A DNA stretch of 46,701 bases from Escherichia phage YDC107_1. How positions within the stretch are numbered: the stretch's first letter is position 1; every line of letters begins with the position of its first letter. The stretch is taken from sequence record CP025712.1. One strand, given 5' to 3'. The position numbers and the translations under genes were made by a program. Shown in pieces: positions 9,354-41,193 of this stretch. A model generated the notes under the pieces. It saw nothing but the letters and a program-made list of their open reading frames with translations. It was not told the origin of the DNA and made no database searches.

Positions 9354-9707
9354 TCAGCGACGACGGTTAACGGCAGGCGGCACACCACGCCCAAGCCAGA
9401 GATGACAACTTCCGCCATCATCCGGCGAAATCCGGTCTATCCAGAAGTTTTCCTCACCGATGGTCAGCGTGTCGCCGCGCCGCAGCTGCCGCACATCATC
9501 AGTCCGGACAAACAGGGACGGGCTGGAGCCTTCAACGCGCACGCCCTGTCCGGCATAGCTGATATTTTCAGGGTCATCAAAAACACCACGTATCACCGCA
9601 CCGGACTGCTCACCGGATGTCATGGTGGCTGACGTTCCCATGTACCCGCGTATTGTTTCATCGGCGCGGGCAATGGCAGCATCGAACAGGTTATCGAAAT
9701 CAGCCAC
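9354..9707 (-). CDS. FII: Head-tail joining protein FII
   Basis: 117 aa lambda FII-like. Confidence 0.9.
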   Translation of the reverse strand: MADFDNLFDAAIARADETIRGYMGTSATMTSGEQSGAVIRGVFDDPENISYAGQGVRVEGSSPSLFVRTDDVRQLRRGDTLTIGEENFWIDRISPDDGGSCHLWLGRGVPPAVNRRR

Positions 9708-9718
9708 AGCGCCTCCCG

Positions 9719-10117
9719 TTATTGCATTCTGGCCAGGCCACGTTCTGTCATTTCGGCTGCCACACCGGCAGAGACACGGAACGCCGTTCCCGGCAGCACA
9801 AATGCCACAGGTTCATCCCGCGTGGCGTGAAGTGCATCGGTATGCAGCGTCACCAGTGCCACTACCGTGACCAGTTCAGCCGTATCATGAATCACGGTAT
9901 CCGGCTGCGCTGATACCACCTCATTTTCATGCCCGGTCAGCACATTTTCCGGGCTGAGAGATGTGTCCTGACCGGCAGCGTCATCCGTGTCATCAAGCTC
10001 CTCTTCCAGCTCTGCCACACGGAGTGCCAGTTCTTCTTTCGTCCCCGTCAGGCTGACATCACGGTTCAGTTGCTCACCCAGCACCTGAAGACGGGCAATC
10101 AGTTCATCTTTCGTCAT
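9719..10117 (-). CDS. FI: DNA packaging protein FI
   Basis: Lambda FI-like from MTKDELIARLQ (132 aa); ORF-track start at 10156 is an upstream in-frame codon. Confidence 0.85.
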   Translation of the reverse strand: MTKDELIARLQVLGEQLNRDVSLTGTKEELALRVAELEEELDDTDDAAGQDTSLSPENVLTGHENEVVSAQPDTVIHDTAELVTVVALVTLHTDALHATRDEPVAFVLPGTAFRVSAGVAAEMTERGLARMQ

Positions 10118-10158
10118 GGACTCCTCCACAGAGAGAAAATGGCCCCGAAGGGCCATGA

Positions 10159-11184
10159 TTACGCCAGTTGTACAGACACGAATTCATCAGGGTCAGCCAG
10201 CAGCATCAGCGGTGCTGACTGAATCATAGTGAACTCACGCGCCGGATCGCCGGTGGTCACCCAGTTTTTCGGGTAACGGGCAGAGGCGTTAATGCCTTCG
10301 CGCTGTGCGTCCGCATCCTGAATGCAGCCATAGGTGCGCAGACCGCGTGCCTGAGTGTTCCCCAGCACCATCGTGTTGTCCGGCAGGAAGTTCTTTTTGA
10401 TGCCGTTTTCCACGTACTGTCCGGAATACACGACGATGGCCACATCGCCATACATTCCCTTATAGGACACCGCTTTGCCCAGGTCTTTCACCGCTGTCTC
10501 CAGCTCGGAATGAGAGCCGCGACGGGTATCCAGCTTATCCTTGACGGCCTTGAAGGAACGGAACAGCGCCCAGCCTTTCGGATCAAACACGATGATATTC
10601 ACCACACCGCTGGCGTTCAGCGCGTAGGCTTCGATATCGTCGGTCGGGTCATACGTGGACTTGTCACGCTGGCTCCACTGCGTGCCGCCGGACTGCGTGA
10701 TGTTATTCGCCGCACTGCGGCCCATATCCACTTCAACCGGATCGAAGGCTTCACCGGTCATGGTGTATTTGCCCTTAAGCACGGCAGAAACGGCCTGCAT
10801 CTCTTCGACCTGGGCAATGGCCAGCTCTTCATCACGCATGTTCTGCATGATGATGCGACGGCGGCGGTAAGCCGGGTCCGCCAGATTCTGCGGATCTTCA
10901 TCCGGCAGGCGACGCAGGGTCATCTGCGGATTCACCTCATGCTTGGGTTTGACATATCCCGGCGTAAATTCAGAGGTGGAGCCGCCACGGGAACGGATAA
11001 CCTCACCGGAAACAATCGGCGAAACGTACAGCGCCATGTTTACCAGTCCCGGAATTTGTGAGAGATAGACTTTCTCCGTGGTGAAGGGATAGCTCTCACG
11101 GAAAAAGAGACGCAGAAACAGCGGATCAAACTTAAATTTCTGCTCATTTGCCGCCAGCAGCTGGGCGGTTGTGTACATCGACAT
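10159..11184 (-). CDS. E: Major capsid protein E
   Basis: Lambda E-like from MSMYTTAQLLAANEQKF (341 aa). Confidence 0.92.
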   Translation of the reverse strand: MSMYTTAQLLAANEQKFKFDPLFLRLFFRESYPFTTEKVYLSQIPGLVNMALYVSPIVSGEVIRSRGGSTSEFTPGYVKPKHEVNPQMTLRRLPDEDPQNLADPAYRRRRIIMQNMRDEELAIAQVEEMQAVSAVLKGKYTMTGEAFDPVEVDMGRSAANNITQSGGTQWSQRDKSTYDPTDDIEAYALNASGVVNIIVFDPKGWALFRSFKAVKDKLDTRRGSHSELETAVKDLGKAVSYKGMYGDVAIVVYSGQYVENGIKKNFLPDNTMVLGNTQARGLRTYGCIQDADAQREGINASARYPKNWVTTGDPAREFTMIQSAPLMLLADPDEFVSVQLA

Positions 11185-12901: not shown

Positions 12902-16582
<3,681 letters not shown>

Positions 16583-18299: not shown

Positions 18300-18317
18300 G
18301 TGCGACCACGGTCGCAC
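18300..18317. repeat. 18-bp palindrome GTGCGACCACGGTCGCAC (candidate SopB-type centromere or protein-binding site), copy 1
   Basis: Perfect palindrome just upstream of the moron gene start. Confidence 0.6.
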
Positions 18318-18519: not shown

Positions 18520-18537
18520 GTGCGACCACGGTCGCAC
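18520..18537. repeat. 18-bp palindrome GTGCGACCACGGTCGCAC, copy 2
   Basis: Intergenic, between the DUF4406-like gene and direct repeat B. Confidence 0.6.
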
Positions 18538-20143: not shown

Positions 20144-20238
20144 ATCTCTTACCTCGCAATAGTTGCTGAGGTTTCGGCTTGGAAACTATACGGCGAGAAA
20201 TAACCCCATCAAAAACGGCAGGGGAATATATTCTTCAG

Positions 20239-21315
20239 TTACTCAAATAACTTTTTCACTTCATCAACTGTCTGAAGATAACGTTCACCCTCAATCTCAA
20301 TACCGATTGCCTGACGACCTAACTTCAGCGCGGCTTTAATAGTAGAGCCTGATCCCATAAAGAAATCGGCAACGATATCTCCGGGGCGGGAACTACTTTT
20401 TATAATATGTTCCATCATCGCTGCAGGTTTTTCACATGGGTGCTTGCCAGGATAATATTGCACAGGAGGAAACTCCCATACATCGGTATAAGGTACATCA
20501 GCAGTAACATGAAATGGGCGGCGCAAATTTTCATACTGAGCCTTCAAATCATCATACTGCTTCTTTACTTCCTCATAACGCAATTTCAGATCGCTATAAC
20601 GCTTTTCATGTTCTGAATAATCAACATTAAAAGGATATGGACACGGGACACCGAGTGAATCTGCCTTCCTGCGAAATAATTCGCATAGTTTATTAAAATC
20701 ACTTAATGATGGAAGCCGCCACTGCGAATAAGAAAACCAGTGCGAACACATCTGCTTTCCTGTTGCTGAATTAATGTCTGCGGCTGATATATCTAACTGA
20801 CGGCGAGCCAGCGAAAAAGCATCAATTAGTGGAGAAAAAATATTTTTTCTTAAATCTGCACATTTTGAAGCATAACCTGACTGACCTTTAGCATAACCTG
20901 ACGCGCCGTAATGCTCTGCAAATAATATTCTTTCAGTGGCAGGAAAATAAGCCCTTAAACTTTCTTTATGACAACCGCGCCACATACCACTGGGTTTAGC
21001 CCAAATGATATGGTTCAGAACATTGAAACGGTCGCGAGTTAATAATTCAATTTTTGACGCAAGGCGAGAGCCGGTAAACATATACAGGCTGCCATTAGGG
21101 GCCAATATCCGCCAAAATTCTGCCAAAAATTCATCAATCCACCCCAAAAAGTCAGCATCGCTATCCCACTGGTTATCCCATGCGTTAGCCTTTACGCCGA
21201 AGTATGGTGGGTCTGTTGCAATCAAATTGACCGAGTTATCAGGGATGGTTTTGATAAATTGCAGAGAATCTGCGCAAACGAGTTGCGCGCCATGAATATT
21301 AGTGGTTTTGAACAT
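20239..21315 (-). CDS. DNA methyltransferase (DPPY-type, N6-adenine or N4-cytosine)
   Basis: Motif IV LIATDPPYF near the N-terminus and motif I FFMGSGST near the C-terminus; likely start MFKTTNIHGAQ at 21315 (ORF-track start 21360). Confidence 0.8.
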   Translation of the reverse strand: MFKTTNIHGAQLVCADSLQFIKTIPDNSVNLIATDPPYFGVKANAWDNQWDSDADFLGWIDEFLAEFWRILAPNGSLYMFTGSRLASKIELLTRDRFNVLNHIIWAKPSGMWRGCHKESLRAYFPATERILFAEHYGASGYAKGQSGYASKCADLRKNIFSPLIDAFSLARRQLDISAADINSATGKQMCSHWFSYSQWRLPSLSDFNKLCELFRRKADSLGVPCPYPFNVDYSEHEKRYSDLKLRYEEVKKQYDDLKAQYENLRRPFHVTADVPYTDVWEFPPVQYYPGKHPCEKPAAMMEHIIKSSSRPGDIVADFFMGSGSTIKAALKLGRQAIGIEIEGERYLQTVDEVKKLFE

Positions 21316-21450
21316 AGCTATTATTTTTTTGCCTGGGTAAGCTAACCCGGCGATGCGCATCGCGGGTGGGCTTTAGGTTCAGCCTATAGCTCTGGCATGG
21401 GTTGACCGCAGGACAAGCTGCAACTTGTCCTGCGCCCACTTTTCAGGCAC

Positions 21451-21472
21451 AAAAAAACCGCCATAAAGGCGG
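21451..21472 (-). terminator. Rho-independent terminator on the late (minus) strand upstream of the methylase/lysis block, tR'-like position
   Basis: Minus-strand CCGCC-TTTAT-GGCGG followed by seven T. Confidence 0.5.
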
Positions 21473-21559
21473 CTTGTTGGCTGTTGGGTACAAAAAACCC
21501 AACTTAACAAAACAATAACTAAAAACCGTAATTTTGCCAAGCTTTTTCGTTTTTGTGCT

Positions 21560-21577
21560 GTGCGACCGTGGTCGCAC
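21560..21577. repeat. 18-bp palindrome GTGCGACCGTGGTCGCAC, copy 3 (opposite orientation of the central dinucleotide)
   Basis: Intergenic, in the late regulatory region. Confidence 0.6.
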
Positions 21578-21582
21578 AGTTT

Positions 21583-21810
21583 TTAGAAAGTTGCCTGCTT
21601 ATATTCATCGGTCAAAGAATATCGACCAGACCCGCTACGCTTTGCAACCCCAAAACAGATCATCTGTTCGATGATAAATTCAACGGCAGCTTGACTCAAA
21701 AAACAGGCTTCGCTTAACTCTTTCAGGGAAATGCGTGGGTATCCACGCATAACACATTCCACACTCAGGGCCGCTTCAGTCATATTTCCACGAATTTCAT
21801 TAATATTCAT
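21583..21810 (-). CDS. Hypothetical small protein
   Basis: 75-aa ORF just upstream of the terminator region; no family recognised. Confidence 0.45.
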   Translation of the reverse strand: MNINEIRGNMTEAALSVECVMRGYPRISLKELSEACFLSQAAVEFIIEQMICFGVAKRSGSGRYSLTDEYKQATF

Positions 21811-21823
21811 AACGCCTCTCTAA

Positions 21824-22063
21824 TCAATCTTGAAACTGGAAATCAACATCAGCCATAAAGCGGTTCAACTCAGCCAGTTTTGGCCCCATAGTCCCAACTA
21901 AGCGACCAGCCAGTCGGTCTGCCAGGTTGGTACTGTTGAAACCATATTCCTTTTCGAAACGTTCAACCTTCTGCCACAACTCATACAGTTCGTTAGCTAT
22001 CTCCGCAACGTCGTCGCGCATTTTTTCGTTACCTTGATAATTCATAATATCCTCCAAATTCAT
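21824..22063 (-). CDS. Hypothetical small protein
   Basis: 79-aa ORF; no family recognised. Confidence 0.45.
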   Translation of the reverse strand: MNLEDIMNYQGNEKMRDDVAEIANELYELWQKVERFEKEYGFNSTNLADRLAGRLVGTMGPKLAELNRFMADVDFQFQD

Positions 22064-22210
22064 ATAGTTAGTGGGTTATTGCCCCTCAATGACACGAACT
22101 GTAACTCTGCCAAACGAACACATCCAGTGTTATTTTTCACTTTTTAGTGAAATTTTTAATTTGCGCTTTTTTCTTGTTTTGGTGTATTTTATGGCTATGG
22201 AGGCTATAAT

Positions 22211-22522
22211 ATGTTTAACGTGATAACCCACCCTGCAGCACTGGATGAACTGCTTGAACTACCAGATGATTTGCGAGGTCGCATGACCAGATTAATTGAG
22301 CGACTGGAGAAGGAAGGCAACAAACTGAAGATGCCCCATAGCCGTGTAATAGGTGGAGGGCTTTTTGAACTACGAGTAGGGGATAAAAACATCGCAAGAA
22401 CGCTGTACGCCTACGCGACTGGTAACGAAATTTATCTATTGCATGCATTTGTAAAAAAGACACAGAAAACACCGGTGAAGGCTATCGAAATCGCCAGAAC
22501 TCGCCTGAAGGAGATGAACTGA
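22211..22522 (+). CDS. Type II toxin, HigB / Gp49-like (RelE/ParE superfamily)
   Basis: 103 aa with …GGGLFELRVGDKNIARTLYAYATGNEIYLLHAFVKKTQKTP… typical of Gp49/HigB; SD GGAGG; upstream palindrome TTTCACTTTTTAGTGAAA at 22135-22152 is a candidate operator. Confidence 0.8.
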   Translation: MFNVITHPAALDELLELPDDLRGRMTRLIERLEKEGNKLKMPHSRVIGGGLFELRVGDKNIARTLYAYATGNEIYLLHAFVKKTQKTPVKAIEIARTRLKEMN

Positions 22523-22809
22523 TGAAAGCGAAAGGCATCCCGTTTAACGAAGTAAAAGAAAAACTTCTCAACACTCCAGAAGCCATCAAAGGATATGAAG
22601 AGGCCGATAAAGAGCTGGAGATGGTCGAAATGTTATACGAAATGAGGGAAAGAGCAGGTTTAACGAAATCAGCTCTGGCTGAACGAATGGGGTTGCGACC
22701 GTCAGCCATCAGCCGCCTGGAAAGCAATCCTTTAGGGGCAAGTATGAAAACTTTGGCTAAATATGCTCATGCCTGCGGCGCAACCATCGATATTCGCGCT
22801 GTTTATTAA
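22522..22809 (+). CDS. HigA-like HTH (XRE family) antitoxin
   Basis: 95 aa, HTH LTKSALAERMGLRPSAISRLE; start overlaps toxin stop (ATGA). Confidence 0.8.
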   Translation: MKAKGIPFNEVKEKLLNTPEAIKGYEEADKELEMVEMLYEMRERAGLTKSALAERMGLRPSAISRLESNPLGASMKTLAKYAHACGATIDIRAVY

Positions 22810-24687: not shown

Positions 24688-25106
24688 TACGCCACCTCCT
24701 GTAAATTTCCCTGATAAAAAGCCAGCACACGCTGCATAACTTCACTTTTCCGGCAATCGTGACAAATCATGTTCAAGCGCCTGTCGTAACGACGTATTTC
24801 TCCGTCAGGTAATGACCAGATAAGGTCTGGATCAACCACTACCGATGTCTTCGGCTTTACTCTTGATAGTTTTTTACGGGCGTTTTGCCAGTCCTTGCGT
24901 GCTTGTGCAGACAGAAATATCCCGGAGCCAGAGATATACAAATCACCACTGGCAGCAAGCTCTCTTGATAAACGACTAACAGCACACCGGCTAATACCAG
25001 TTTCATCCGCAAGTTGCCTAACCGTTCCTCGTCCATTCAGGCGCACGAGTTCCACAATTTGTTTATTCAGTTCTTCCCTCTGTTCTGGTGTAAAAGCCTT
25101 TGCCAT
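24687..25106 (-). CDS. Putative HTH DNA-binding protein
   Basis: 139 aa; HTH-like RQLADETGISRCAVSRLSREL. Confidence 0.5.
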   Translation of the reverse strand: MAKAFTPEQREELNKQIVELVRLNGRGTVRQLADETGISRCAVSRLSRELAASGDLYISGSGIFLSAQARKDWQNARKKLSRVKPKTSVVVDPDLIWSLPDGEIRRYDRRLNMICHDCRKSEVMQRVLAFYQGNLQEVA

Positions 25107-25705
25107 TACGATTCTCCTTGCCCTTTTACAAGACGGGAGAAAATTGCGGATACATACTTAGCCTGATGAATAGCATCAGCCAGGGCATTGTGTCGTTCAC
25201 CATCAAATGGCATATCTTTTTTAGGATTGAAACCAATAAACTGACCAAGATTAACGATTGTTCGAACATCCTGATCATTAAAATATTCCCACGGACAGGC
25301 TAAGCCAACGCGCTCATAAGCACCGCGTAAAATTACATTGTCGAATGTTGCTCCATTTCCCCATACTTTCAATTTTTTTAAATTACATGCATGGCAAGTA
25401 ATAAAGTGTGATAATTCAAAAAGTGCATCCTTAATATTAAGGGCATCATTAGTACAAATTGCGGCTCTGGCTTCCTTGCTCTGTTTCAACCACCATAAAA
25501 TGGTATCACCATCGGCGACACCACCATTCAACATCGAGCTTCTGAGATTCACTGGCACATAAAAAGTAGGACCTAATTCCTCACCTTCTGGAGAAAAAAA
25601 CACTGCCCCGATAGAAACAATTGGAGCACATGTGTTAGTACCCATTGTTTCAAGGTCAATCATTACATCAGACCGTTTCCTGTCGTAAATAATCTGATTA
25701 GTCAC
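25106..25705 (-). CDS. DEDDh-type 3'-5' exonuclease (DnaQ-like)
   Basis: Exo I motif MIDLETMG and Exo III H-x4-D (HNALADA). Confidence 0.75.
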   Translation of the reverse strand: MTNQIIYDRKRSDVMIDLETMGTNTCAPIVSIGAVFFSPEGEELGPTFYVPVNLRSSMLNGGVADGDTILWWLKQSKEARAAICTNDALNIKDALFELSHFITCHACNLKKLKVWGNGATFDNVILRGAYERVGLACPWEYFNDQDVRTIVNLGQFIGFNPKKDMPFDGERHNALADAIHQAKYVSAIFSRLVKGQGES

Positions 25706-25932: not shown

Positions 25933-26233
25933 TTTCTTGTGCGACCACGGTCGCACCCTCTCTGATTTCCAAGTAACGCTTAATCCAAAGATTTTCTATA
26001 TGCTTATTACCTGGCTGATTTGATAAATACCAATCGGCAATTACAGACTGCTTATTACTATCTGGTCGTGTCCTGTAACCACAAGTTGGACACCAAATAA
26101 CATATTCATTTCTTACCCCCGAATACCTTAATTCTGGCTTCGACGGTTTCCTGAACATAACTTGTTTACAAAGGCAGAATGGCACTTCCTGCCCGATGGC
26201 GTTTGATGATTTCACTGCGCTTCTCCGCCGCAT
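25913..26233 (-). CDS. Hypothetical protein with CxxC zinc-ribbon motif
   Basis: 106-aa ORF with CPTCG; start uncertain. Confidence 0.4.
   Translation of the reverse strand: MRRRSAVKSSNAIGQEVPFCLCKQVMFRKPSKPELRYSGVRNEYVIWCPTCGYRTRPDSNKQSVIADWYLSNQPGNKHIENLWIKRYLEIREGATVVAQENENNAI
25939..25956. repeat. 18-bp palindrome GTGCGACCACGGTCGCAC, copy 4
   Basis: At the junction of two small early genes. Confidence 0.6.
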
Positions 26234-26876
26234 TTAATAATGCGGTTCGATTTAAGCTCAGACATCGCGACTTAATTAAAAGCCAGCGTTCTTTATAATC
26301 TTGTCTCCAGCTATCAATAGATATATTCAGTAGAAAACTCAGATGCCTGTCCTGTTCTCTCTCATCAACTGCCTCAGCACACGTAAGTTCTGATTTAACC
26401 TGTTGTGCCGCGTAATAAATCAATTTCCGCATGGCTTTTTTCGTGGAGGCCTTCATTTTTTTAAAGCCGCCCCCCGAATGAGCAACCAGAAAATCAAGCC
26501 ATAACCACTGACAAACAATCACATCATTGTTGTAATCAGGCTTGCATCCGTAGCAATAATAAAGCCAGGCTGATTCCTCGTTATTCAACTGACCAATAGC
26601 CCTGCGCCAGCTGGCGCTCTGAAAATCAATATCAGTGAGCAACATTGATGATTGTTTAAATGTTTTCCCCTGATGGAATCTAACCGGCTCAGCAGGAACG
26701 GACACTTCGTATGAGTTATCATCCCCCACACTGATTGACCGGACTGGTTTATTGTTAAACCGTCCTGATCTACCGAGACGCATCTGCTCAAGCTGGACCT
26801 CCAGAATGCCACGCTGGCGATAATGAACATCAGCCAATGCCGTAGAGACGCAGCTGCGTATATACTCAAGCTCCAC
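26166..26876 (-). CDS. Hypothetical early protein directly downstream of cro (regulator or Q-like candidate)
   Basis: 236 aa from a GTG start with SD AAGGAG; contains CYGC…C cysteines; family not recognised. Confidence 0.5.
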   Translation of the reverse strand: MELEYIRSCVSTALADVHYRQRGILEVQLEQMRLGRSGRFNNKPVRSISVGDDNSYEVSVPAEPVRFHQGKTFKQSSMLLTDIDFQSASWRRAIGQLNNEESAWLYYCYGCKPDYNNDVIVCQWLWLDFLVAHSGGGFKKMKASTKKAMRKLIYYAAQQVKSELTCAEAVDEREQDRHLSFLLNISIDSWRQDYKERWLLIKSRCLSLNRTALLNAAEKRSEIIKRHRAGSAILPL

Positions 26877-27087
26877 GCTTACGACTCTCCTTAATCGACT
26901 GCTTTACCCGCCGAGTTGTAAAGTCACTCTTCAGCTTATAAGCAGTACGAACTTCAATATCGCTTTGCCGCAATGAAGGAATCTCTCCAGCGGTTAACCA
27001 TTGGTAAACAGCTCCGGGTGTTACACCTACCCCTGCCGCTGCTTTTTCTACACTGCCAAAATGGCGAATAAGTTCTTCTGGTTTCAT
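26866..27087 (-). CDS. cro: Cro-like HTH repressor
   Basis: 73 aa from MKPEELIRHFGSVEKAAAGVGVTPGAVYQWL; divergent from the repressor gene. Confidence 0.7.
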   Translation of the reverse strand: MKPEELIRHFGSVEKAAAGVGVTPGAVYQWLTAGEIPSLRQSDIEVRTAYKLKSDFTTRRVKQSIKESRKRGA

Positions 27088-27118
27088 GTTGTTATTATAA
27101 ACAATAAACAACAATTAA

Positions 27119-27156
27119 AGCCAGCTATAATAAATAAATTTTATAGCCAGCTATAA
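27119..27156. promoter_or_regulatory. Operator region between cro and cB: two AGCCAGCTATAA repeats
   Basis: Repeats at 27119-27130 and 27145-27156; the second lies in the near-palindrome TTATAGCCAGCTATAA; AT-rich promoter context. Confidence 0.5.
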
Positions 27157-27178
27157 GAAGATCATTTATGATTACAGT

Positions 27179-27775
27179 ATGAAAACACGAGGCGAACGAC
27201 TGAAAGCACGCCGTTTAGAGATGAAGCTGACGTTGCGAGAAGTTGCTGAGGCTGTCGATATCTCTATAGCAGGCGTCCAAAACTTAGAACGTGGCGACGT
27301 AATGCCGTCACTGGAGATAGGTATTGCCCTGGCTAAGTGCTTACGCAAGCCAGTGCATTGGGTGCTATATGGGACAGAATATGACCCTGATCGCATTCCT
27401 GTTATTGGCACAACTGAAAGTGGGCCGGATGAAGAGTGGAAGCCGGGACAGGTTCCAAATACTGAGCGATTCCTGCCATTCATCAGCCAGCGCAATACTG
27501 TGTATGCGTTAACTATCAGCAATCTTACGCAGGGAAACTATCAGCCAGGCGATTTTCTCCTGGTCGATTCTGCGCTGGAACTGGTCCCCGGCGAGGATGT
27601 TCTGGTTCGTGATACTGCAGGAAATATCACTATCCAGCGCCTGGCCCGTTTTGATGATGAAAATTACTATCTGGATGGAACAAACTCACAACGCGCCATC
27701 TTCAGGAAAAGCGATCTTGAATTTGTTCACCAAATAGTCGGAACGATCAAATCATTCATGGTTGAGGGTAGATGA
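27179..27775 (+). CDS. cB: Prophage repressor (N15 CB / lambda CI analogue): HTH plus degenerate LexA-like C-terminal domain
   Basis: 198 aa; N-terminal HTH LTLREVAEAVDISIAGVQNLERG. Confidence 0.8.
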   Translation: MKTRGERLKARRLEMKLTLREVAEAVDISIAGVQNLERGDVMPSLEIGIALAKCLRKPVHWVLYGTEYDPDRIPVIGTTESGPDEEWKPGQVPNTERFLPFISQRNTVYALTISNLTQGNYQPGDFLLVDSALELVPGEDVLVRDTAGNITIQRLARFDDENYYLDGTNSQRAIFRKSDLEFVHQIVGTIKSFMVEGR

Positions 27776-27869
27776 CTTAATACGGGGTTTATTGTTTGCT
27801 GTAAATCTGGTTTAATGCAGGGCATATGTTCTGTGGGTTGACTCAGGTTACAGCAGCAGAAAAAAGACG

Positions 27870-27905
27870 AAAAAAAACCCGAGTCGGCAAACTCGGGTCC
27901 TTTTC
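27870..27905. terminator. Bidirectional rho-independent terminator after the repressor gene
   Basis: A-run, CCCGAGT-CGGCAAA-ACTCGGG, then T-run. Confidence 0.5.
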
Positions 27906-28020
27906 AGGAAGCAGCCACAACAACGCGACAGATTCCGTCAATTCAAGATGCGTTTATTGTGGCTGCTCCTGCGGATTTTTTCAACCCGAAAAAACATAAT
28001 TCGCATGGAATGGCTAAAAA

Positions 28021-31000
28021 ATGACATTAAACGATTTCTATGCGGATCGCTTTGGCAGCGATCCGTTCTCGCTAATTGAAGCAGCACGGGATGAACTAAC
28101 CGAGCTGGCACAGATGGCTGGTATCAACTGGCCTGCCTGTTCCGACAACATCCAACTCAACCCTCGCGGGGGGGTTGAGCGTTACTCTTCATACAATAAA
28201 ACATCTCCAGAAGCTCTCGAAAAGAGCCTGAAAGGACGCGTAGAAATTTACTCCAGGCTGGAACACAGCAAAGGGATTGATTACCCGTTCATTAACTTCG
28301 TCCATAAAGGCAGCGATGCTGGCTCATGGAGCGGTTTCTCCTTCCTGTTTTCTGAATATCGCCGTGAGCAACAACGGAATAATGCGACCGTGGTCGCACA
28401 ACCGGAAGAAGAACGGGAAAGAATAGAACGTCAGGCCGAAGCACGTCGTCGCCGTGAAGAACAAAAACGAATTAATGACCTGAAAAACAACCAAATGGAC
28501 CATGAACGTTTGCTGGGATGGCTGGCATTCCACAGCGCGTGGGAACATGCTCAGGCTGAAGACGGCTCATGGCCATATGCGATTAAAAAAGGTATTCGTG
28601 ACGTTTTTAGTTCATGTGATGTGCGTCGCGTGACCAGTCACGACAGTGCGAAATGGAGCCGGGGGCCAACCACATATATGGCTATCCCTCTGGCTCACCT
28701 GGACGGTCGTTATGATGGTCGTATTGTGGGTTGGCAGCGAATCGACAAACAAGGTGGGAAATACCAGACCAGCGCAGTAACCAGCGGCGATTTCGTCGGT
28801 GCCTGCTTTGTTATCGGTGAGCTGAAAGGGGCGCAAAACATCGCTGTTACAGAAGGTTTTGCTACTGGTGCATCCATCTGGCTTGCCACGAAAAAAGATA
28901 AACGCTTTGACGCGGTGGTTGTCGCTGTATCCGCTAACAACATGGTTCATGTTGTGGAACAACTGGTAAACATGTACCCGGCGGCAAAAATCACCTGCGC
29001 ACTGGATAATGACCGGAAATCTGCCACAGAAGGAAAAGGGAATACCGGCCTGCGGACTGGCTATGAAATCTTATCGAAATTCAACGATGTCCGCTGCGTC
29101 TACCCAACTTTTGAAGACGATCCGCAAATGGAGTGCAGTGACTTCAACGACCTGCACAAACTACGTGGACTTCGTGAAACAGCACGTCAACTATTTGCAA
29201 CAGCAAACCGCCTGAAAACCGGCACTGATTTGCTATCTCTGACGCTCAACCGCCTGAAGACAATTAAGCGGGATAACCGTCGTACTTTTGCCAAAGAGCT
29301 GCTGAGAGCGGTGGATATTGGCATGCTAACCTGTCCGGTTCCTAACAGTCCGTCAGATTTGTTTAACATGTTCTGTATCGTTCTGCGTGAAATGGGGCTG
29401 GAAAATATCTATCGCGCTACGGTAAAAGACCACATTGCCCGTCGCCTGAATAAAAAATGCCGTATTGCCCAGGCTCCGCGCTCTTTCAGCGAACGCATAA
29501 CTGATCCCAATAAACGCCCTCAACATATCACCTATAAGCGTTTTGAAACTTCGGTAATGACCTATGACGTCCTGAAGTACGTGCAATCACTACAGGGGAT
29601 CGTCATCGTTCGTGCTGGTATGGGTTCCGGCAAATCTACTGGATTGTTACGACCGTTAATGCATAGCTCAGAACGCGGTATCTCTGTAGCTCACCGTGTT
29701 TCCCTTATTGGTGGCCTGTGGGAAATGATGACTGAAGGAAAAGGTGTAAAAGCCGATATCCTGCACTATCAGGACCCTGGCTATCAGGAAATGGCTCCAT
29801 ACGCCAGTAAACTGACCATCTGCATAAACTCGATTGTTAAAAACTGCTGGCAACCGTTGATGCGCCAGCACGACTATTTTGGCTTTGACGAGGCCACACA
29901 AGGGCTACGTGCCGTTCTTTCCGGTCGGGCTATGGAAAACCCAGTGGCTGTATTCAATACGCTAATTGACGCGCTGGCCAGAACGGAACAACACCCAATA
30001 ATGGTGGATGCTGATGCGAACGATCTGCTGGTTGACCTGGCTGAACTGGCTATGAAACGCCGTGAAGAACTAGGTTTACCGGCATGGCTGCAGATCCACG
30101 TAATTGAATTACCTGTTGATGTTCGCAACCGCGAAACAGGTGAGCCAATCCGGGTTTTTTATACAGAAAAAGATCGCATCATGACCGAGGTGGTGAAAGC
30201 TGTATCGGATGGCGAAAAAATCATGTTGGCCACCGACAGCTCCACCTTTGCAGAAGATGTGACCGCCACCCTGAGAATGCATTTTCCTGGTAAGAAATTT
30301 CTGTGCGTAAACCAGAAAAGCAAACAGGATGAAGAAGTCGATGCTTTTACCAACCAGCCAAAAGTAATGGTGATGAAATACGATGGACTGATCTACAGCC
30401 CGTCGATTTCCTCCGGGGTGTCATTTGAGAAAAAACATTTTGACCGTCATTTCGGCATGTTCTGCGGTGAAGTTGTGCCCAGCGACGCAGTGCAAATGCT
30501 ACGCCGCGACCGTACAGCAAAAGAATTTATTATCGGCTTTGATAAAGCTCGTGCAAAACGCGAGACTGATCCGCAAAAAATAGAACGTGCATTCGCCCAG
30601 GCATTACTTGCTACCGCAGGCATGAACGGTGAACTGACGGATGTCGTTTTCGATGGCGACCGTATATCAATGGGGGTGGCCAATACCGACTTTACCAGGA
30701 TGAAAATTAAAGCTGCCGCTATTGAAGCGTCTGCGCGTAACGACTACGCCAGCAACATGATCTGCATCATGCACAGCGACGGTTATAAGGTATCGCCATT
30801 AGCTACTGATTATGCCGCAAATGATTTTGGTAAAGAGCTGCGCAAAGAAGCGCGGGATATTGTGTGGGAACAGACGCTGGATCTGCACCTCAATACAGAG
30901 ACACCAGAAGAATCAGAGCGTGAAGAACTACTAAAAAAACGTGCGCTAACGCTTGAAGAACAGGCAAAACTTGTCCGCTGGGATATTGAGAACGAACTGA

Positions 31001-32004
31001 AACTACCGGTTGAAGAAGGCACGCTGAAATTCTATTTCGATGGTGCTCGAGACAAAATTCGCCGTTATGAAACGATGCTGCTTGATGAAGTCACAGCCCG
31101 TCGTTATGACCGTGAAGAAGCGGCTATCAATTTTACATACGCATACCGCCAGACCGGACAGTGGCAATATTTTGTGGTGACCGCGATGACACGCGAGCAG
31201 GCTGATGATGTATTCAAAGCGAAATTTCCGGGAATAATCGACTACAAGGTAAAAGCCACCCCAGCTGTTGAGGTCGGCATGCGCGGATTCTATGCGCTTA
31301 AATCAGCAACTCTCCGGCAGTATTTTATCGACTGCGGTATCGACCCTGAAACTATGACTGGCGAAGCGACGCAGGAACGCCTTAAGTTCGCTCGAGATAA
31401 TCTCATGACAGCAGAACGCCGTGACCTGTTGAATAACGTTCTGCGCATTGGTGGTTTTATGACACCAAAAGGGAAGCCTAAAGTGCCGGAAGCACTGTTT
31501 AAAAACATCTGCGACTCTCTCGGCCTAAAAACAGGAAAACGTCGCGGCAGAGATGGCGATAAGCGCCCGACATTGCGTTTTGTTGAGCCTGAGTCTGTAG
31601 CATTTATGCTTGATATTCTTACGCAACGTCAGGAGGACGGTATGACGTTGAAAGCTCGCAAGGCAGAAAAATCAACGACCGAAGTGGATCGCGATTTGTC
31701 ATTAAATATATATATGAATGGTGAAACGCGATCCACAAACACGGAGGAACAGGATCCCCCTCGTTCAGCTATATCACAGGCTTTGGCTGTATTGCCGGTG
31801 GCTGTTCCTGAGTCCTGGGCGATGAGTGCTCTGCCATCAGCCGAACTGGAATCTATCAGGGGGTGGTCAGTTGACAGCATCGCATACACGTTTGCAGCCC
31901 TTTATATGACTGAGTTTATGGATTTGCTGTCCGGTCATGAGATTAAGTTGCTGAAGGCTTTTATAGGCCCACGACATGCCAGCGATGAGTTTTGTGTAGT
32001 TTAG
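28021..32004 (+). CDS. repA: Replication protein: Toprim primase fused to a helicase/NTPase (N15 RepA / P4 alpha-like)
   Basis: 1327 aa; Toprim motifs (VTEGFATGASIW, ALDNDRKSATEGKG); Walker A GMGSGKST; Walker B-like FDEATQ. Confidence 0.9.
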   Translation: MTLNDFYADRFGSDPFSLIEAARDELTELAQMAGINWPACSDNIQLNPRGGVERYSSYNKTSPEALEKSLKGRVEIYSRLEHSKGIDYPFINFVHKGSDAGSWSGFSFLFSEYRREQQRNNATVVAQPEEERERIERQAEARRRREEQKRINDLKNNQMDHERLLGWLAFHSAWEHAQAEDGSWPYAIKKGIRDVFSSCDVRRVTSHDSAKWSRGPTTYMAIPLAHLDGRYDGRIVGWQRIDKQGGKYQTSAVTSGDFVGACFVIGELKGAQNIAVTEGFATGASIWLATKKDKRFDAVVVAVSANNMVHVVEQLVNMYPAAKITCALDNDRKSATEGKGNTGLRTGYEILSKFNDVRCVYPTFEDDPQMECSDFNDLHKLRGLRETARQLFATANRLKTGTDLLSLTLNRLKTIKRDNRRTFAKELLRAVDIGMLTCPVPNSPSDLFNMFCIVLREMGLENIYRATVKDHIARRLNKKCRIAQAPRSFSERITDPNKRPQHITYKRFETSVMTYDVLKYVQSLQGIVIVRAGMGSGKSTGLLRPLMHSSERGISVAHRVSLIGGLWEMMTEGKGVKADILHYQDPGYQEMAPYASKLTICINSIVKNCWQPLMRQHDYFGFDEATQGLRAVLSGRAMENPVAVFNTLIDALARTEQHPIMVDADANDLLVDLAELAMKRREELGLPAWLQIHVIELPVDVRNRETGEPIRVFYTEKDRIMTEVVKAVSDGEKIMLATDSSTFAEDVTATLRMHFPGKKFLCVNQKSKQDEEVDAFTNQPKVMVMKYDGLIYSPSISSGVSFEKKHFDRHFGMFCGEVVPSDAVQMLRRDRTAKEFIIGFDKARAKRETDPQKIERAFAQALLATAGMNGELTDVVFDGDRISMGVANTDFTRMKIKAAAIEASARNDYASNMICIMHSDGYKVSPLATDYAANDFGKELRKEARDIVWEQTLDLHLNTETPEESEREELLKKRALTLEEQAKLVRWDIENELKLPVEEGTLKFYFDGARDKIRRYETMLLDEVTARRYDREEAAINFTYAYRQTGQWQYFVVTAMTREQADDVFKAKFPGIIDYKVKATPAVEVGMRGFYALKSATLRQYFIDCGIDPETMTGEATQERLKFARDNLMTAERRDLLNNVLRIGGFMTPKGKPKVPEALFKNICDSLGLKTGKRRGRDGDKRPTLRFVEPESVAFMLDILTQRQEDGMTLKARKAEKSTTEVDRDLSLNIYMNGETRSTNTEEQDPPRSAISQALAVLPVAVPESWAMSALPSAELESIRGWSVDSIAYTFAALYMTEFMDLLSGHEIKLLKAFIGPRHASDEFCVV
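28383..28398. repeat. 16-bp core TGCGACCGTGGTCGCA, copy 5, inside repA
   Basis: Outer bases not complementary (16 of 18); mirrored copy at 45080-45097. Confidence 0.5.
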
Positions 32005-32021
32005 AGGGTAGAAGCGTGGGA

Positions 32022-32288
32022 ATGATGCAAGAGTGCCTCGTTTTGATTGAAGGGTATGATCCGTATGTTGTTAACGTCAGCAGAATGGATACTGGCTATA
32101 GCGACTACAAAACTGGTCGTGAACTGCCGTTCACCATCATCAGGATGAATAGCTTTGGCGATGATGATGCTGTTTATTGCTGTATAGCCAGCGATAAAAA
32201 CATGGAAGACCGGACAGATGAAGCCCGTATGCTATTGAGGAAATATAAGGTAAAGCCGTTATCAGAGAATAACGCTGAGAGGGGTTAA
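32022..32288 (+). CDS. Hypothetical protein
   Basis: From ATG MMQECLVLIEGYDP (ORF-track start 31992 is TTG). Confidence 0.45.
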   Translation: MMQECLVLIEGYDPYVVNVSRMDTGYSDYKTGRELPFTIIRMNSFGDDDAVYCCIASDKNMEDRTDEARMLLRKYKVKPLSENNAERG

Positions 32289-32290
32289 AA

Positions 32291-32686
32291 ATGGCAGTTC
32301 AATCATACAAATACGAATCCCCTTTGGATAAGGGATACATTCGTATCAAGTTAAGTCGTTCTCAGCATAAGGCTATTTTTAAGGTAAGGAAAATTCGCAT
32401 ATTGGATGCGTATGCGTATTACTACAACGGTGAAAATGTTGTTGTTGAACACTTTCTTGCACGATGGTTTGTAGCTCTGATTTTTGTCCCTCTCCTGTTA
32501 ATTGGTACTTTTGTGGATGGTTTTCCTAGTACATGGCGGGAGATAAAGAAAGGCCTATTCCCGCGTAAGTACGGCAGATTTTCGCAAGATAGCTGGCGAG
32601 TTATACCTGGTAAACATTCTGTGGATGAGCAGCCGATTGTTGATTACTGGTTGAAGCATATGGCTGATGCTAAAAAAGTTGATTGA
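32291..32686 (+). CDS. Hypothetical membrane protein
   Basis: 131 aa with SD GAGAGGGG; TM segment WFVALIFVPLLLIGTFV. Confidence 0.5.
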   Translation: MAVQSYKYESPLDKGYIRIKLSRSQHKAIFKVRKIRILDAYAYYYNGENVVVEHFLARWFVALIFVPLLLIGTFVDGFPSTWREIKKGLFPRKYGRFSQDSWRVIPGKHSVDEQPIVDYWLKHMADAKKVD

Positions 32687-32704
32687 GTTGTGGAAGGAGT
32701 ATTT

Positions 32705-32929
32705 ATGAACTGTAACAAAAATGAAGAAACTCGCCTGGTTTGGACGGTAGTAATCGGAGATAAAGAGGGCGGTGAAGAGCCTCATTTTGATTATTCTGTG
32801 GCTTTGCAGGCTCTCATCCTTGAAGCGCAGAGATACCAACAAGAGATGCAGAAGAACCCTCAACTGGAACCTCGACCAATTGGCCTATTCTGCGAGCGAG
32901 TATCAGCGGCGGAACTCCCTGATATCTGA
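32705..32929 (+). CDS. Hypothetical small acidic protein
   Basis: MNCNKNEETRLVWTVVIG…; SD GGAAGGA. Confidence 0.45.
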   Translation: MNCNKNEETRLVWTVVIGDKEGGEEPHFDYSVALQALILEAQRYQQEMQKNPQLEPRPIGLFCERVSAAELPDI

Positions 32930-33120
32930 TGCCCTCCAACAGCTGATCAGGTTCTGATCAGTTAGTAAAGCAAACTATAAAAACACCTGTCCCCGTGACT
33001 GGTCACGGGGTAAAATGTCTTTGCAAATTATTGACGTGTGCGTCGTTTTGACGGTAAAGTTACTTCGCTGCGGTAAATCCCGTAGCCGGGACTCTCAACC
33101 CCGAAATCCGAACGACGCAC

Positions 33121-33143
33121 AACACGCGCCAGCGTGTTTTTTT
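33121..33143 (+). terminator. Rho-independent terminator ending a short untranslated transcript upstream of the anti-repressor operon
   Basis: AACACGC-GCCA-GCGTGTT followed by a T-run. Confidence 0.45.
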
Positions 33144-33309
33144 GTGTGTATGAGCCTGCGCATATCCGAATTATGGTGGCTCAGGTGGGGCAGCCGAAAG
33201 GCTGGCCGGTGTCGTTTGGGCCGGTGTTGAGAACCCCGCTTGGGCTACCACCCCATAGAGATTCTCAACTCTGGTGGTAGCACTGTTTTACCAAACAAGA
33301 GTGCATACC

Positions 33310-33474
33310 ATGTTCAAATTCAAATTTGCGGCAGTCGTTCGCACAGACAAAAAGTCACACATCCATCATCTTTCCACCATCGCGTCATCTGAACGGGAAG
33401 CTCGTCGCCAGTTCGCCAGCCGGTTTGTCCTGGTATTGTCTGCCCGTATTCCGGTGCGCGAGGTGGCTGCATGA
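33310..33474 (+). CDS. Small protein, first gene of the anti-repressor operon (Icd-like position)
   Basis: 54 aa from MFKFKFAAVVRTDKK. Confidence 0.35.
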   Translation: MFKFKFAAVVRTDKKSHIHHLSTIASSEREARRQFASRFVLVLSARIPVREVAA

Positions 33475-33704
33475 ATCAGGTAAAAATGAACACTGTTGGC
33501 CTGCTGGAATCGTTGGATGAACGTCTGGCTCAGGTCTATGCGCTTGTGTCATCAGCCCATCGTACAGTCTCCAGTTGTGAGGCGTCGATTTATCTCTCAG
33601 AAGCCGGGAAGCTCCTTCAAATCGCGTGTGAGTTGACACACAAAGCACAGGGGTATTCAGCATCTCTCTCGTCGCAATTGCAGCACAATAAGGAGGCCAA
33701 ATGA
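33471..33704 (+). CDS. Hypothetical protein (anti-repressor operon)
   Basis: 77 aa, SD GAGGTGG, ATGA-coupled to neighbours. Confidence 0.45.
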   Translation: MNQVKMNTVGLLESLDERLAQVYALVSSAHRTVSSCEASIYLSEAGKLLQIACELTHKAQGYSASLSSQLQHNKEAK

Positions 33705-34477
33705 GCGCGTTAGCTGTATTTTCGTTTCAGGAAGAGCATCAGGTTCGTGTAGTGATGATTGATAGCGATCCGTGGTTTGTTGCATCTGATGTGTGTATGG
33801 CGGCGGGTATTGATTCTACGGCCATTAGAAAGTTGGATGAGGACGAAAAGGGTCTGCATTTAATGCAGACCCCTGGCGGATACCAGAATGTTTCAATCAT
33901 CAAGGAGTCAGGTCTATACACCCTAATCCTCCGCTGCCGTGACGCGGTGAAGCAAGGCACAACAGCTTGGCGGTTTCGCAAATGGGTAACGAACGAAGTC
34001 TTGCCCTCTATTCGCAAAAATGGAGAGTACGTTTACGTTGAGCCAGAGCCAATGCGAGCAGCAGAGCCGTTGAACTGGAGGCAGAAAGAGTATCTGCGAG
34101 GGCTGATTAACGATATTGCACAAAGTTTTCAATACCGAAATGCCTGGATTAGCGGTGTATGGTTGGCTTTGCGTCGGGCGTGTCGTAATCCATCCCCGAA
34201 CCCCATAACTGTTGATGATTTGCCAGCAATAACGGCAGAACTGCGACGGATTTTGACGGCTGCTGAGTCGGCATTGGGGAACATGCGCACGTATGAACGA
34301 GAGTTGTTGCGTGATGTTGTTCGTGGTGGTAGGCGGAGTATGTCGTGTGGTGATTTGCCCATCACCGATATCAACTCTGATCTGGAAAAGGCGTTACCCG
34401 CGCATTTTGAACTGGCAGTTCAAAAACTTGAGCAGTTGTCCGCGCAGCTAAAGCCAGCAGAAATCACCAATAAATAG
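33701..34477 (+). CDS. ant: Anti-repressor with Bro-N domain
   Basis: 258 aa; N-terminus FSFQEEHQVRVVMIDSDPWFVASDVCMAAGI… typical of Bro-N/Ant; SD AGGAGG. Confidence 0.75.
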   Translation: MSALAVFSFQEEHQVRVVMIDSDPWFVASDVCMAAGIDSTAIRKLDEDEKGLHLMQTPGGYQNVSIIKESGLYTLILRCRDAVKQGTTAWRFRKWVTNEVLPSIRKNGEYVYVEPEPMRAAEPLNWRQKEYLRGLINDIAQSFQYRNAWISGVWLALRRACRNPSPNPITVDDLPAITAELRRILTAAESALGNMRTYERELLRDVVRGGRRSMSCGDLPITDINSDLEKALPAHFELAVQKLEQLSAQLKPAEITNK

Positions 34478-34649
34478 GGTTGGCCAGCCCGAATTGATGC
34501 CCTTCTTAGTGAGGGGAAGCCTCGCAGTCTGGGCGGTGATGTCTGTGGTTGCAGCCGCGTTTCCTCCGTTACTTCTGCCCTTTGCAGGGGGCAGGCGAGG
34601 CAGGCCACATAACAAGGCACCGATTAATTCGGTGCCTTTAACGTATGCT

Positions 34650-36551: not shown

Positions 36552-36714
36552 CTTTCCTCTCCTGATTATCCGCTCGGATTATCGTAACACAATTTGAGAA
36601 TAAGATAACTAATAACGCGTTAACTTAGGCACAAACTAACAGAACACAATAACGGATAATAAATAAAAACACAATATCGGAACGTTAAAATTTGTTCCTT
36701 GACTTTGTTCTGAA

Positions 36715-36770
36715 AATCAGCACATAATTTCCCATTATACGCGCGTATAATGGGAAATTATGTGCTGATT
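36715..36770. other. telRL-like telomere resolution site; centre of dyad symmetry between 36742 and 36743
   Basis: AATCAGCACATAATTT-CCCATTATACGCGCGTATAATGGG-AAATTATGTGCTGATT, same architecture as N15 telRL as I recall. Confidence 0.8.
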
Positions 36771-36933
36771 TTCAGAACAAAGTCAAGGAACAAATTTTAA
36801 CGTTCCGATATTGTGTTTTTATTTATTATCCGTTATTGTGTTCTGTTAGTTTGTGCCTAAGTTAACGCGTTATTAGTTATCTTATTCTCAAATTGTGTTA
36901 CGATAATCCGAGCGGATAATCAGGAGAGGAAAG

Positions 36934-38833: not shown

Positions 38834-39005
38834 AGCATACGTTAAAGGCACCGAATTAATCGGTGCCTTGTTATGTGGCCTGCCTCGCCTGCCCCCTGCA
38901 AAGGGCAGAAGTAACGGAGGAAACGCGGCTGCAACCACAGACATCACCGCCCAGACTGCGAGGCTTCCCCTCACTAAGAAGGGCATCAATTCGGGCTGGC
39001 CAACC

Positions 39006-39782
39006 CTATTTATTGGTGATTTCTGCTGGCTTTAGCTGCGCGGACAACTGCTCAAGTTTTTGAACTGCCAGTTCAAAATGCGCGGGTAACGCCTTTTCCA
39101 GATCAGAGTTGATATCGGTGATGGGCAAATCACCACACGACATACTCCGCCTACCACCACGAACAACATCACGCAACAACTCTCGTTCATACGTGCGCAT
39201 GTTCCCCAATGCCGACTCAGCAGCCGTCAAAATCCGTCGCAGTTCTGCCGTTATTGCTGGCAAATCATCAACAGTTATGGGGTTCGGGGATGGATTACGA
39301 CACGCCCGACGCAAAGCCAACCATACACCGCTAATCCAGGCATTTCGGTATTGAAAACTTTGTGCAATATCGTTAATCAGCCCTCGCAGATACTCTTTCT
39401 GCCTCCAGTTCAACGGCTCTGCTGCTCGCATTGGCTCTGGCTCAACGTAAACGTACTCTCCATTTTTGCGAATAGAGGGCAAGACTTCGTTCGTTACCCA
39501 TTTGCGAAACCGCCAAGCTGTTGTGCCTTGCTTCACCGCGTCACGGCAGCGGAGGATTAGGGTGTATAGACCTGACTCCTTGATGATTGAAACATTCTGG
39601 TATCCGCCAGGGGTCTGCATTAAATGCAGACCCTTTTCGTCCTCATCCAACTTTCTAATGGCCGTAGAATCAATACCCGCCGCCATACACACATCAGATG
39701 CAACAAACCACGGATCGCTATCAATCATCACTACACGAACCTGATGCTCTTCCTGAAACGAAAATACAGCTAACGCGCTCAT
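39006..39782 (-). CDS. Mirror copy of the Bro-N anti-repressor gene (intact)
   Basis: Identical 258-aa translation to 33701..34477. Confidence 0.5.
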   Translation of the reverse strand: MSALAVFSFQEEHQVRVVMIDSDPWFVASDVCMAAGIDSTAIRKLDEDEKGLHLMQTPGGYQNVSIIKESGLYTLILRCRDAVKQGTTAWRFRKWVTNEVLPSIRKNGEYVYVEPEPMRAAEPLNWRQKEYLRGLINDIAQSFQYRNAWISGVWLALRRACRNPSPNPITVDDLPAITAELRRILTAAESALGNMRTYERELLRDVVRGGRRSMSCGDLPITDINSDLEKALPAHFELAVQKLEQLSAQLKPAEITNK

Positions 39783-40012
39783 TTGGCCTCCTTATTGTGC
39801 TGCAATTGCGACGAGAGAGATGCTGAATACCCCTGTGCTTTGTGTGTCAACTCACACGCGATTTGAAGGAGCTTCCCGGCTTCTGAGAGATAAATCGACG
39901 CCTCACAACTGGAGACTGTACGATGGGCTGATGACACAAGCGCATAGACCTGAGCCAGACGTTCATCCAACGATTCCAGCAGGCCAACAGTGTTCATTTT
40001 TACCTGATTCAT
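39779..40012 (-). CDS. Mirror copy of the 77-aa anti-repressor-operon gene
   Basis: Identical translation to 33471..33704. Confidence 0.4.
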   Translation of the reverse strand: MNQVKMNTVGLLESLDERLAQVYALVSSAHRTVSSCEASIYLSEAGKLLQIACELTHKAQGYSASLSSQLQHNKEAK

Positions 40013-40778: not shown

Positions 40779-40796
40779 AAATACTCCTTCCACAAC

Positions 40797-41191: not shown

Positions 41192-41193
41192 TT

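Follow-up and report, generated by a model that had tools for sequence, protein, structure and literature searches.

The linear plasmid prophage N15 is said to express its late genes from a confirmed promoter, p52, with terminators (in the plural) between this promoter and the first open reading frame (ORF), and its Q analogue, encoded about 6 kb from p52, reportedly acts as an antiterminator. SopB bound at the partition sites is reported to assist Q in its action at the late promoter, and mutation of the inverted-repeat (IR) sites IR2 or IR3 is said to delay late expression, in the case of IR3 without causing derepression. Here we analyzed the corresponding locus in a stretch of 46,701 nucleotides from Escherichia phage YDC107_1 (CP025712.1), which is referred to at its full length as the window. 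As judged by homology, gene order, and the conservation of its sequence elements, positions 21361-21600 very probably represent the late-operon control region of an N15-like prophage and serve as a site of Q-dependent antitermination.

Several components of such a late switch are on record for the closest described systems. In the GenBank entry of N15 (AF064539), a -35 region, a -10 region, and a rho-independent terminator are marked upstream of gene 52, and the SopB sites IR1-IR4 have the core GTGCGACCNNGGTCGCAC (PMC7205306, Table 4). The order of repressor, cro, and Q in the immB region of N15 is also found in the published literature. The entry of the Klebsiella oxytoca phage phiKO2 (AY374448) contains a 'putative plasmid partitioning site', a 'putative late promoter' with -35 and -10 regions, and a 'terminator' upstream of the methylase gene 52, and the Q gene (gp38) is followed after about 200 bp by a second 'putative plasmid partitioning site'. 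The arrangement of a distant Q gene behind cro, with partition sites beside both Q and the late promoter, is thus known from the description of N15 and from the annotation of phiKO2. The value of the present analysis is corrective, as it indicates that the late switch of a widespread E. coli phage-plasmid is the one of N15.

Q protein and gene order

The original prediction had found no recognizable Q antiterminator for the late operon and had suggested that late control may use a different regulator, with the 236-aa protein encoded after cro as one candidate. In profile searches, this 236-aa ORF (26166-26876, minus strand) matched PF06323 (Phage_antiter_Q) with an E-value of 4e-84 and 282 bits compared to a cut-off of 25, the match covering residues 2-229 of 236, and it matched phrog_304 ('anti-termination protein Q-like') at 2e-72. 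The protein is 67% identical to N15 gp40, for which AF064539 gives the designation 'late transcription activator' and U45242 that of 'Q: antiterminator', and 66.5% identical to phiKO2 gp38, a 'lambda Q-like transcription antiterminator'. Comparison with the phage 82 Q gene (X92588) revealed 28% identity over 93% of the length (E = 1e-20), and the best match among sequences of solved structures had an E-value of 0.83. By these profile and pairwise matches, the product of 26166-26876 is a Q antiterminator of the phage 82 type. The candidate named before was therefore the right late regulator, but it is a Q protein and not an alternative to one, and neither the missing Q nor the different regulator could be upheld.

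The GTG start codon of Q overlaps the stop codon of cro by 11 nt. The cro gene (26866-27114, minus strand; PF14549, P22_Cro, at 2.5e-22) is the first gene of the cro-Q operon, which is syntenic with N15 genes 38-40, and is faced by a gene for a cI/CB-type repressor of 198 aa (27179-27775, plus strand). The order of repressor, cro, and Q directly after cro is that of the immB region, as in N15. In lambdoid phages of the 82 type, the Q gene is immediately followed by the promoter on which Q acts, whereas here Q is located after cro and a distance of 4.6 kb with about 12 ORFs separates its end at 26166 from the -35 region of the late promoter at 21540. In N15 this distance is 5.4 kb (35747 to 41162), and the early genes present between Q and the promoter differ from those in the window.

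The two ORFs adjoining the control region (21583-22063, minus strand) encode proteins of 75 and 79 aa and are counterparts of N15 gp51 and gp50, based on synteny in N15, phiKO2, and plasmid relatives. Both belong to PHROGs of unknown function. For the 75-aa ORF, Pfam searches gave weak matches of winged-helix type, and for the 79-aa ORF they gave no match. Neither protein showed similarity to Q in the Pfam and PHROG profile searches, which agrees with the earlier view that they do not encode it, and by this evidence they are not Q.

Architecture of the control region

The 3-kb stretch around the control region showed 99.9% identity to Escherichia phage PhiR46_1 (PV340565) and about 75% identity to phiKO2 and to an Enterobacter Ravinvirus. 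When the 311-bp control region was used for a search of higher sensitivity, matches were obtained to N15 (83.5% identity) and also to phiKO2, PY54, and their relatives. The deposited PhiR46_1 sequence is a linear molecule in which telL and telR sites are marked, with the annotated genes for ParA and ParB being located at one end (43667-45822). Therefore, the window can be assigned by homology to an N15-like (Ravinvirus-type) linear plasmid prophage, i.e., a telomere phage. The family is common, since 210 plasmid records carry the control region, 24 of them being E. coli plasmids with at least 99% identity. For comparative purposes, 23 elements from Escherichia, Enterobacter, Citrobacter, Klebsiella, and Yersinia, obtained in part by a pattern scan of viral contigs, were aligned over the control region.

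All late genes of the element (methylase, holin, lysozyme, Rz, terminase, head, and tail) are located on the minus strand. Promoter prediction on this strand revealed a sigma-70-like sequence at 21540-21512 with a -35 region (TTGGCA, 21540-21535) and a -10 region (TATTGT, 21517-21512) separated by a 17-bp spacer and with 9 of 12 matches. This predicted late promoter aligns with the -35 and -10 regions annotated for N15 and phiKO2 and would be the counterpart of N15 p52. Downstream of it, TAAGTTGGG (21506-21498, minus strand) is located at the presumed start site (A21505 or A21504) and consists of a -10-like hexamer, TAAGTT, followed by GGG. In the form TA(A/T)GTTGG(G/C), the motif was near-invariant in 22 of the 23 relatives, including the distant PY54 type. 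At lambda pR', the promoter-proximal element is AACGAT followed by GGG. By analogy, TAAGTTGGG might be a sigma-70-dependent promoter-proximal pause element and the place where Q is loaded.

The late transcript would begin with a 5' hairpin composed of GTTGGGT, a 7-nt loop, and ACCCAAC (21483-21503, minus strand), which is supported by the pairing in relatives. In 15 distinct versions of this hairpin, 73 pairs were of the Watson-Crick type; G·U pairs numbered 13 when the late strand was read, whereas reading the opposite strand gave none. Because of this bias, the 5' hairpin is constrained as late-strand RNA, which fits transcription from the promoter at 21540-21512.

The hairpin is followed by an intrinsic, tR'-like terminator (21477-21451, minus strand) composed of AAGCCGCC, TTTAT, GGCGGTT, and a T run. 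The scan placed its stem at 21475-21455 with a loop of five nucleotides and seven T residues at 21457-21451, and it corresponds to the terminators annotated in N15 and phiKO2. The sequence GGCGGTTTTTTT of the terminator was invariant in the 23 relatives, and RNA ended at this site would be about 53-55 nt long. Terminator-like sites were not more frequent in the 3-kb stretch than in shuffled sequences (3 versus 3.0), so that their count by itself is no proof. The order of palindrome, -35 region, -10 region, TA(A/T)GTTGG(G/C), 5' hairpin, and terminator was maintained throughout the 23 aligned elements. The late operon is thus preceded by a promoter and a nearby intrinsic terminator, both conserved in all of these elements, as is typical of an antitermination module. 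The strong terminator on the late strand and the palindrome copy upstream of it, both pointed out in the original prediction, were confirmed, and the suggested late control site of the pR'/tR' type gained support from the alignment with the annotated late promoters and terminators of N15 and phiKO2.

The palindrome GTGCGACCGTGGTCGCAC (21560-21577) is of the SopB/ParB type, is located 19 bp upstream of the -35 region, and is the counterpart of N15 IR3. A second copy, the counterpart of IR2, is present 210 bp downstream of Q (25939-25956), so that SopB-type inverted repeats lie both at the late promoter and downstream of Q, as is characteristic of N15-type elements. Further copies were found 220 bp apart at 18300-18317 and 18520-18537, between the lysis genes and cos, and a copy with one mismatch was found at 28382-28399 inside the 1327-aa replication gene. 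The pattern GTGCGACCNNGGTCGCAC occurs six times in the window compared to 0.01 expected occurrences, and the unique palindrome copies number five, in contrast to the four IR sites described for N15. In phiKO2, a 'putative plasmid partitioning site' is annotated at the position aligned to 21560-21577. The position of the palindrome next to the late promoter was conserved in 21 of the 23 relatives. In elements of the PY54 type, its place is taken by another palindrome, TTGGGACCNNGGTCCCAA, and two copies are present in some Klebsiella elements. Therefore, the conserved trait is that a partition site lies next to the late promoter, and not one given sequence.

Model of late control and comparison with other phages

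According to the model suggested by these features, the promoter at 21540-21512 would fire toward the late genes, and without Q the transcripts would stop about 55 nt downstream at the terminator 21477-21451. After inactivation of the repressor, the cro-Q operon would be transcribed and Q would be made. Q would then modify RNA polymerase that has paused close to TAAGTTGGG at the start site, and the modified polymerase would pass the terminator at 21477-21451 and later terminators and thereby transcribe the methylase, lysis, terminase, head, and tail genes. The partition palindromes are positioned beside both partners, one following Q at a distance of 210 bp and the other preceding the -35 region by 19 bp. 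The element would represent a natural case of an antiterminator whose target is several kilobases distant, both being accompanied by a partition site.

Several points weigh against this model. The start site, the pause, the loading of Q, and the effect of SopB are inferred here, and the sopAB/parAB genes lie outside the window, which begins within the tail genes. The score of the late promoter is modest, with its 9 of 12 matches, and promoter-like sites were not enriched in the region (8 versus 6.6 expected). In addition, the control region has no clear motif in common with the late promoters of the lambdoid phages of the 82 type, whose Q proteins are about 28% identical to the one described here; the comparison covered the sequences downstream of Q in PPompW, Gifsy-1, phiES15, and ST101-KPC2phi6.1 and gave no convincing common promoter-proximal motif.

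The closest counterpart of the locus is that of N15, in which the same series of repressor, cro, Q, early genes, toxin-antitoxin pair on the opposite strand, gp50, gp51, palindrome, promoter, terminator, methylase, and lysis genes is found and the palindrome core is the same. The similarity to phiKO2 is lower in the control region (about 76-79% identity), and the sequences of the leader hairpins described below differ, with the pairing being kept by compensatory changes, but all sites annotated in phiKO2 align with the window. With phage 82, the element shares a Q protein of the same family and would also share the logic by which a constitutively active promoter is combined with a promoter-proximal element and with a terminator a short distance away. 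The lambda system of Q, pR', qut, and tR' (6S RNA) would belong to the same class of mechanism, having a -10-like hexamer and GGG at the transcript start, and a short terminated RNA is expected here as well. However, the Q protein of lambda is a member of another protein family, and lambda has neither a partition palindrome nor a long structured leader.

Structure of the late leader

The first late gene (20239-21315, minus strand) encodes a DNA adenine methyltransferase and is the counterpart of N15 gene 52, as indicated by PHROG 67 at 6e-91 and by methyltransferase matches in NCBIfam. The ATG at 21315 is the sole start codon conserved across the relatives and was also chosen in RefSeq. The methylase therefore most likely starts at 21315 and not at 21360, as assumed previously, and as a consequence the leader is about 45 nt longer.

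With this start codon, the gap between the T run of the terminator and the methylase is filled by a structured domain of about 130 nt (21316-21450). The nested repeats noticed in the original prediction were located within it, GGACAAG (21411-21417) and CTTGTCC (21424-21430) being enclosed by GTGGGC (21366-21371) and GCCCAC (21434-21439). The inner repeats form hairpin A (21407-21434) and the outer ones helix P1 (21434-21439 with 21366-21371). The predicted structure further comprises hairpin B (21376-21407), hairpin C (21346-21366), and the long-range helix P0 (21444-21449 with 21330-21335). Hairpin A is perfectly paired in the window, whereas it contains C·A in N15. On both strands, the sequence 21316-21450 folded better than all of 200 dinucleotide shuffles (z-scores of -4.7 and -4.9, the latter for the late strand).

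To compare the pairing among relatives, one covariance model was built per strand from eight N15-type sequences, and the divergent relatives were realigned to each model. In 19 distinct relatives, covariation was strong, and changes on both sides were found for 27 of 36 pairs. The covariation score was 0.54 compared to 0.16 in shuffles, none of 500 shuffles reaching 0.54, and slid controls showed only 34-44% pairing. An Rfam search with positions 20900-22300 on both strands and E-values up to 1 gave a best E-value of 0.027, with all hits far below the gathering scores.

Raw folding energy was considered as a test of which strand is constrained and was rejected. The plus strand was about 10 kcal/mol more stable in 22 of the 23 sequences, but the mean z-scores obtained with dinucleotide shuffles were -3.6 versus -3.2 and barely separated the strands, so that the energy advantage of the plus strand mostly reflects its G+T content. 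For the choice of strand we therefore relied on wobble counts and on the strand-specific covariance models. When each strand was aligned to its own model, 93.9% of the cells were paired on the plus strand and 87.0% on the late strand. The corresponding values were 87.1% and 73.4% for helix B and 98.9% and 92.7% for helix A. The cells that were not Watson-Crick comprised 76 G·U and 5 A·C in the plus-strand alignment, compared to 6 G·U and 63 A·C in the late-strand alignment. An alignment-free count, in which each distinct hairpin was included once, gave 0 G·U pairs on the late strand and 16 on the plus strand for hairpin A and 3 versus 37 for hairpin B. One U·G pair of the plus strand was retained in 18 of 19 distinct sequences. 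Moreover, the plus-strand model outscored the late-strand model on 14 of 15 sequences outside its training set. The pairing in the leader fits the plus strand, which is antisense to the late RNA, better than the late strand.

A sigma-70 promoter for a plus-strand RNA that is consistent across the relatives was not found; only an invariant TA(A/G)GCT stood out, with a TGn extension limited to the phiKO2 and PY54 types. A good plus-strand terminator for an antisense RNA was not found either. The telomere-phage paper published in Sci Adv in 2025 does not mention transcripts, RNA-seq, promoters, or the methylase. The strand asymmetry of the leader structure is unexplained and possibly a new feature.

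Alternative explanations

Late transcription might be controlled without Q by a different regulator, such as an activator or a sigma-like factor encoded by the small ORFs or the early genes. Such a scheme could appeal to the fact that both ORFs adjoining the site are not Q, and helix-turn-helix signals were detected in other early ORFs, namely in those for a 139-aa DUF977 protein and for a 108-aa phrog_536 'transcriptional regulator'. However, a clear Q of the 82 family is present in the same operon position as the N15 Q, and the target has the layout of a promoter with an immediate terminator, which corresponds to antitermination rather than to an activator-dependent promoter, making control without Q highly improbable. 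A different role can also be considered for the palindrome near the -35 region, which might mainly silence the late promoter in the prophage by binding and spreading of the partition protein instead of helping Q. ParB-type proteins spread from their sites and silence nearby promoters, and silencing would be in accord with the distance of 19 bp to the -35 region, with the even shorter distance of 8-9 bp in PY54-type elements, and with the two copies in some Klebsiella elements. Since mutation of IR3 in N15 is said to delay late expression and not to relieve a block, we consider this role of the palindrome unlikely.

For the leader domain, an additional layer compatible with Q-dependent antitermination would be a function of 21316-21450 on the plus strand, either as a cis-antisense RNA or as a single-stranded DNA structure. 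An antisense RNA would pair with late transcripts leaking past the terminator and silence the methylase and lysis genes in the prophage state, and its synthesis might in addition disturb the late promoter, which is convergent. Such a function is suggested by the pairs in hairpins A and B that are not Watson-Crick, almost all of which are C·A on the late strand and thus G·U on the plus strand, whereas the 5' hairpin upstream of the terminator has the opposite bias (13 versus 0). The better fit of the plus-strand model both to its own alignment and to sequences outside the training set points in the same direction. On the other hand, a convincing promoter and a good terminator for the plus-strand RNA were lacking, the z-scores barely separated the strands, no Rfam family matched, and a strand-biased mutation process could add to the asymmetry. 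Alternatively, the domain might act on the late mRNA, as a processing or stability element, as a transcription block that is overridden by Q, or by limiting translation of the methylase. The late strand folds well, with most of its cells being paired, and the domain sits exactly between the T run of the terminator and the methylase start. It is closed by P0, for which compensatory changes were found (GCCTG/CAGGC in the N15 type and GCCTT/AAGGC in the phiKO2 type). The report of more than one terminator between p52 and the first ORF of N15 would also be in accord with an action on the late mRNA. This explanation is opposed by the disruption of hairpin B on the late strand, where up to 5 of 13 pairs are C·A in one relative, by the absence of a late-strand hairpin followed by a T run in the domain, and by the wobble asymmetry, which points the opposite way. 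Weighing these arguments, we regard an additional plus-strand layer as a real possibility that falls somewhat short of an even chance, and the existence of a functional plus-strand element in the leader domain can be proposed only tentatively. It is more doubtful that in the N15, phiKO2, and PY54 types the 130-nt domain serves as such an opposite-strand element, i.e., a hitherto undescribed cis-antisense RNA or a single-strand DNA signal, to the exclusion of late-mRNA regulation, and an action on the late mRNA itself seems rather unlikely.

If the plus-strand element exists, its 130 nt would guard the late operon against leakage through the terminator or modulate expression of the methylase. 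If the strand signal is real, it would add an antisense layer to a phage late operon, and such a layer would bear on the question of how low-copy plasmid prophages keep their lysis genes silent. Lambda OOP, PaQ, and P22 sar would be comparable in being small RNAs opposite to a regulatory transcript of a temperate phage. The target of the candidate RNA described here would, however, be the leader of the late operon. We know of no precedent for an antisense RNA directed at a late-operon leader and of no published transcript at the leader domain.

Neighbouring genes, annotation, and termini

In elements of the phiKO2 and PY54 types, the first codons of the methylase gene (ATGAAAAACACTGTAAAAATAAACAGTG; first 30 nt) were near-invariant at the nucleotide level despite a divergence of about 25% elsewhere, as seen in L001, L008, L010-L013, and other relatives. 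The region of ATGAAAAACACTGTAAAAATAAACAGTG contains the palindrome CACTGT...ACAGTG, which is absent from N15-type elements, including the window. At the other end of the methylase gene, a weak terminator-like hairpin (CCCC...GGGG and then TTATTT) is all that is present in the gap to the holin gene (20144-20238, minus strand); in N15, a rho-independent terminator is annotated in this gap.

Two annotations in the deposited genome of PhiR46_1, which is 98-99.9% identical, can be corrected. Its Q gene (9454-10164) is labelled 'hypothetical protein', and an ORF of 53 aa corresponding to 21379-21540 of the window (minus strand; 14790-14951 in PhiR46_1) covers promoter and terminator. PhiR46_1 lists this ORF as a coding sequence, and the RefSeq entries of plasmids call its product a 'hypothetical protein'. 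It begins inside the -35 hexamer and spans the start site, the terminator, and the leader, and it is almost certainly not a gene. The 199-aa protein encoded at 25106-25705 resembles the Rv2179c-like 3'-5' exoribonucleases (PF16473, 7e-68); its label in PhiR46_1 is exodeoxyribonuclease VIII.

Between the early genes and gp50, two overlapping ORFs of 103 and 95 aa are present on the plus strand (22211-22809). In RefSeq, their phiKO2 counterparts are annotated as a toxin of the RelE/ParE family and a transcriptional regulator (antitoxin). Since this toxin-antitoxin module breaks the run from early to late genes, gp50 and gp51 would need a promoter of their own.

Among the viral contigs, L075 (IMG/VR contig 3300036846_000707) initially appeared to have a leader without a promoter, which might have indicated a link between leader and methylase. 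This was ruled out by an IS3-family insertion with two transposase ORFs located between gp51 and the terminator (5162-6315). The contig is probably a defective prophage in which the late promoter has been separated from the late operon. The contigs L016, L018, L023, L038, L060, and others have a terminator and a TGCCT motif followed by GCAAAGCGGGC..ACCCAAGGGGTGCA and then by a coding region; they represent a different, unrelated family with a similar terminator context.

The window contains an inverted duplication in the part from 26776 to 46701, where the last 10 kb are an inverted copy of 26776-36742 with a perfect fold-back centred at 36742/36743. Together with the telL and telR sites of PhiR46_1, this fold-back is in accord with a linear prophage that has hairpin telomeres. 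The fold-back point adjoins a 633-aa ORF (34650-36551), which is the ORF beside telL in PhiR46_1, and it looks like the result of an assembler reading through a covalently closed hairpin telomere. The inverted arms are out of register by eight single-base steps. In the mirrored copy, the 633-aa ORF is broken (446 aa), as is the 1327-aa ORF (132, 970, and 265 aa); these breaks suggest that the consensus of the second copy contains errors.

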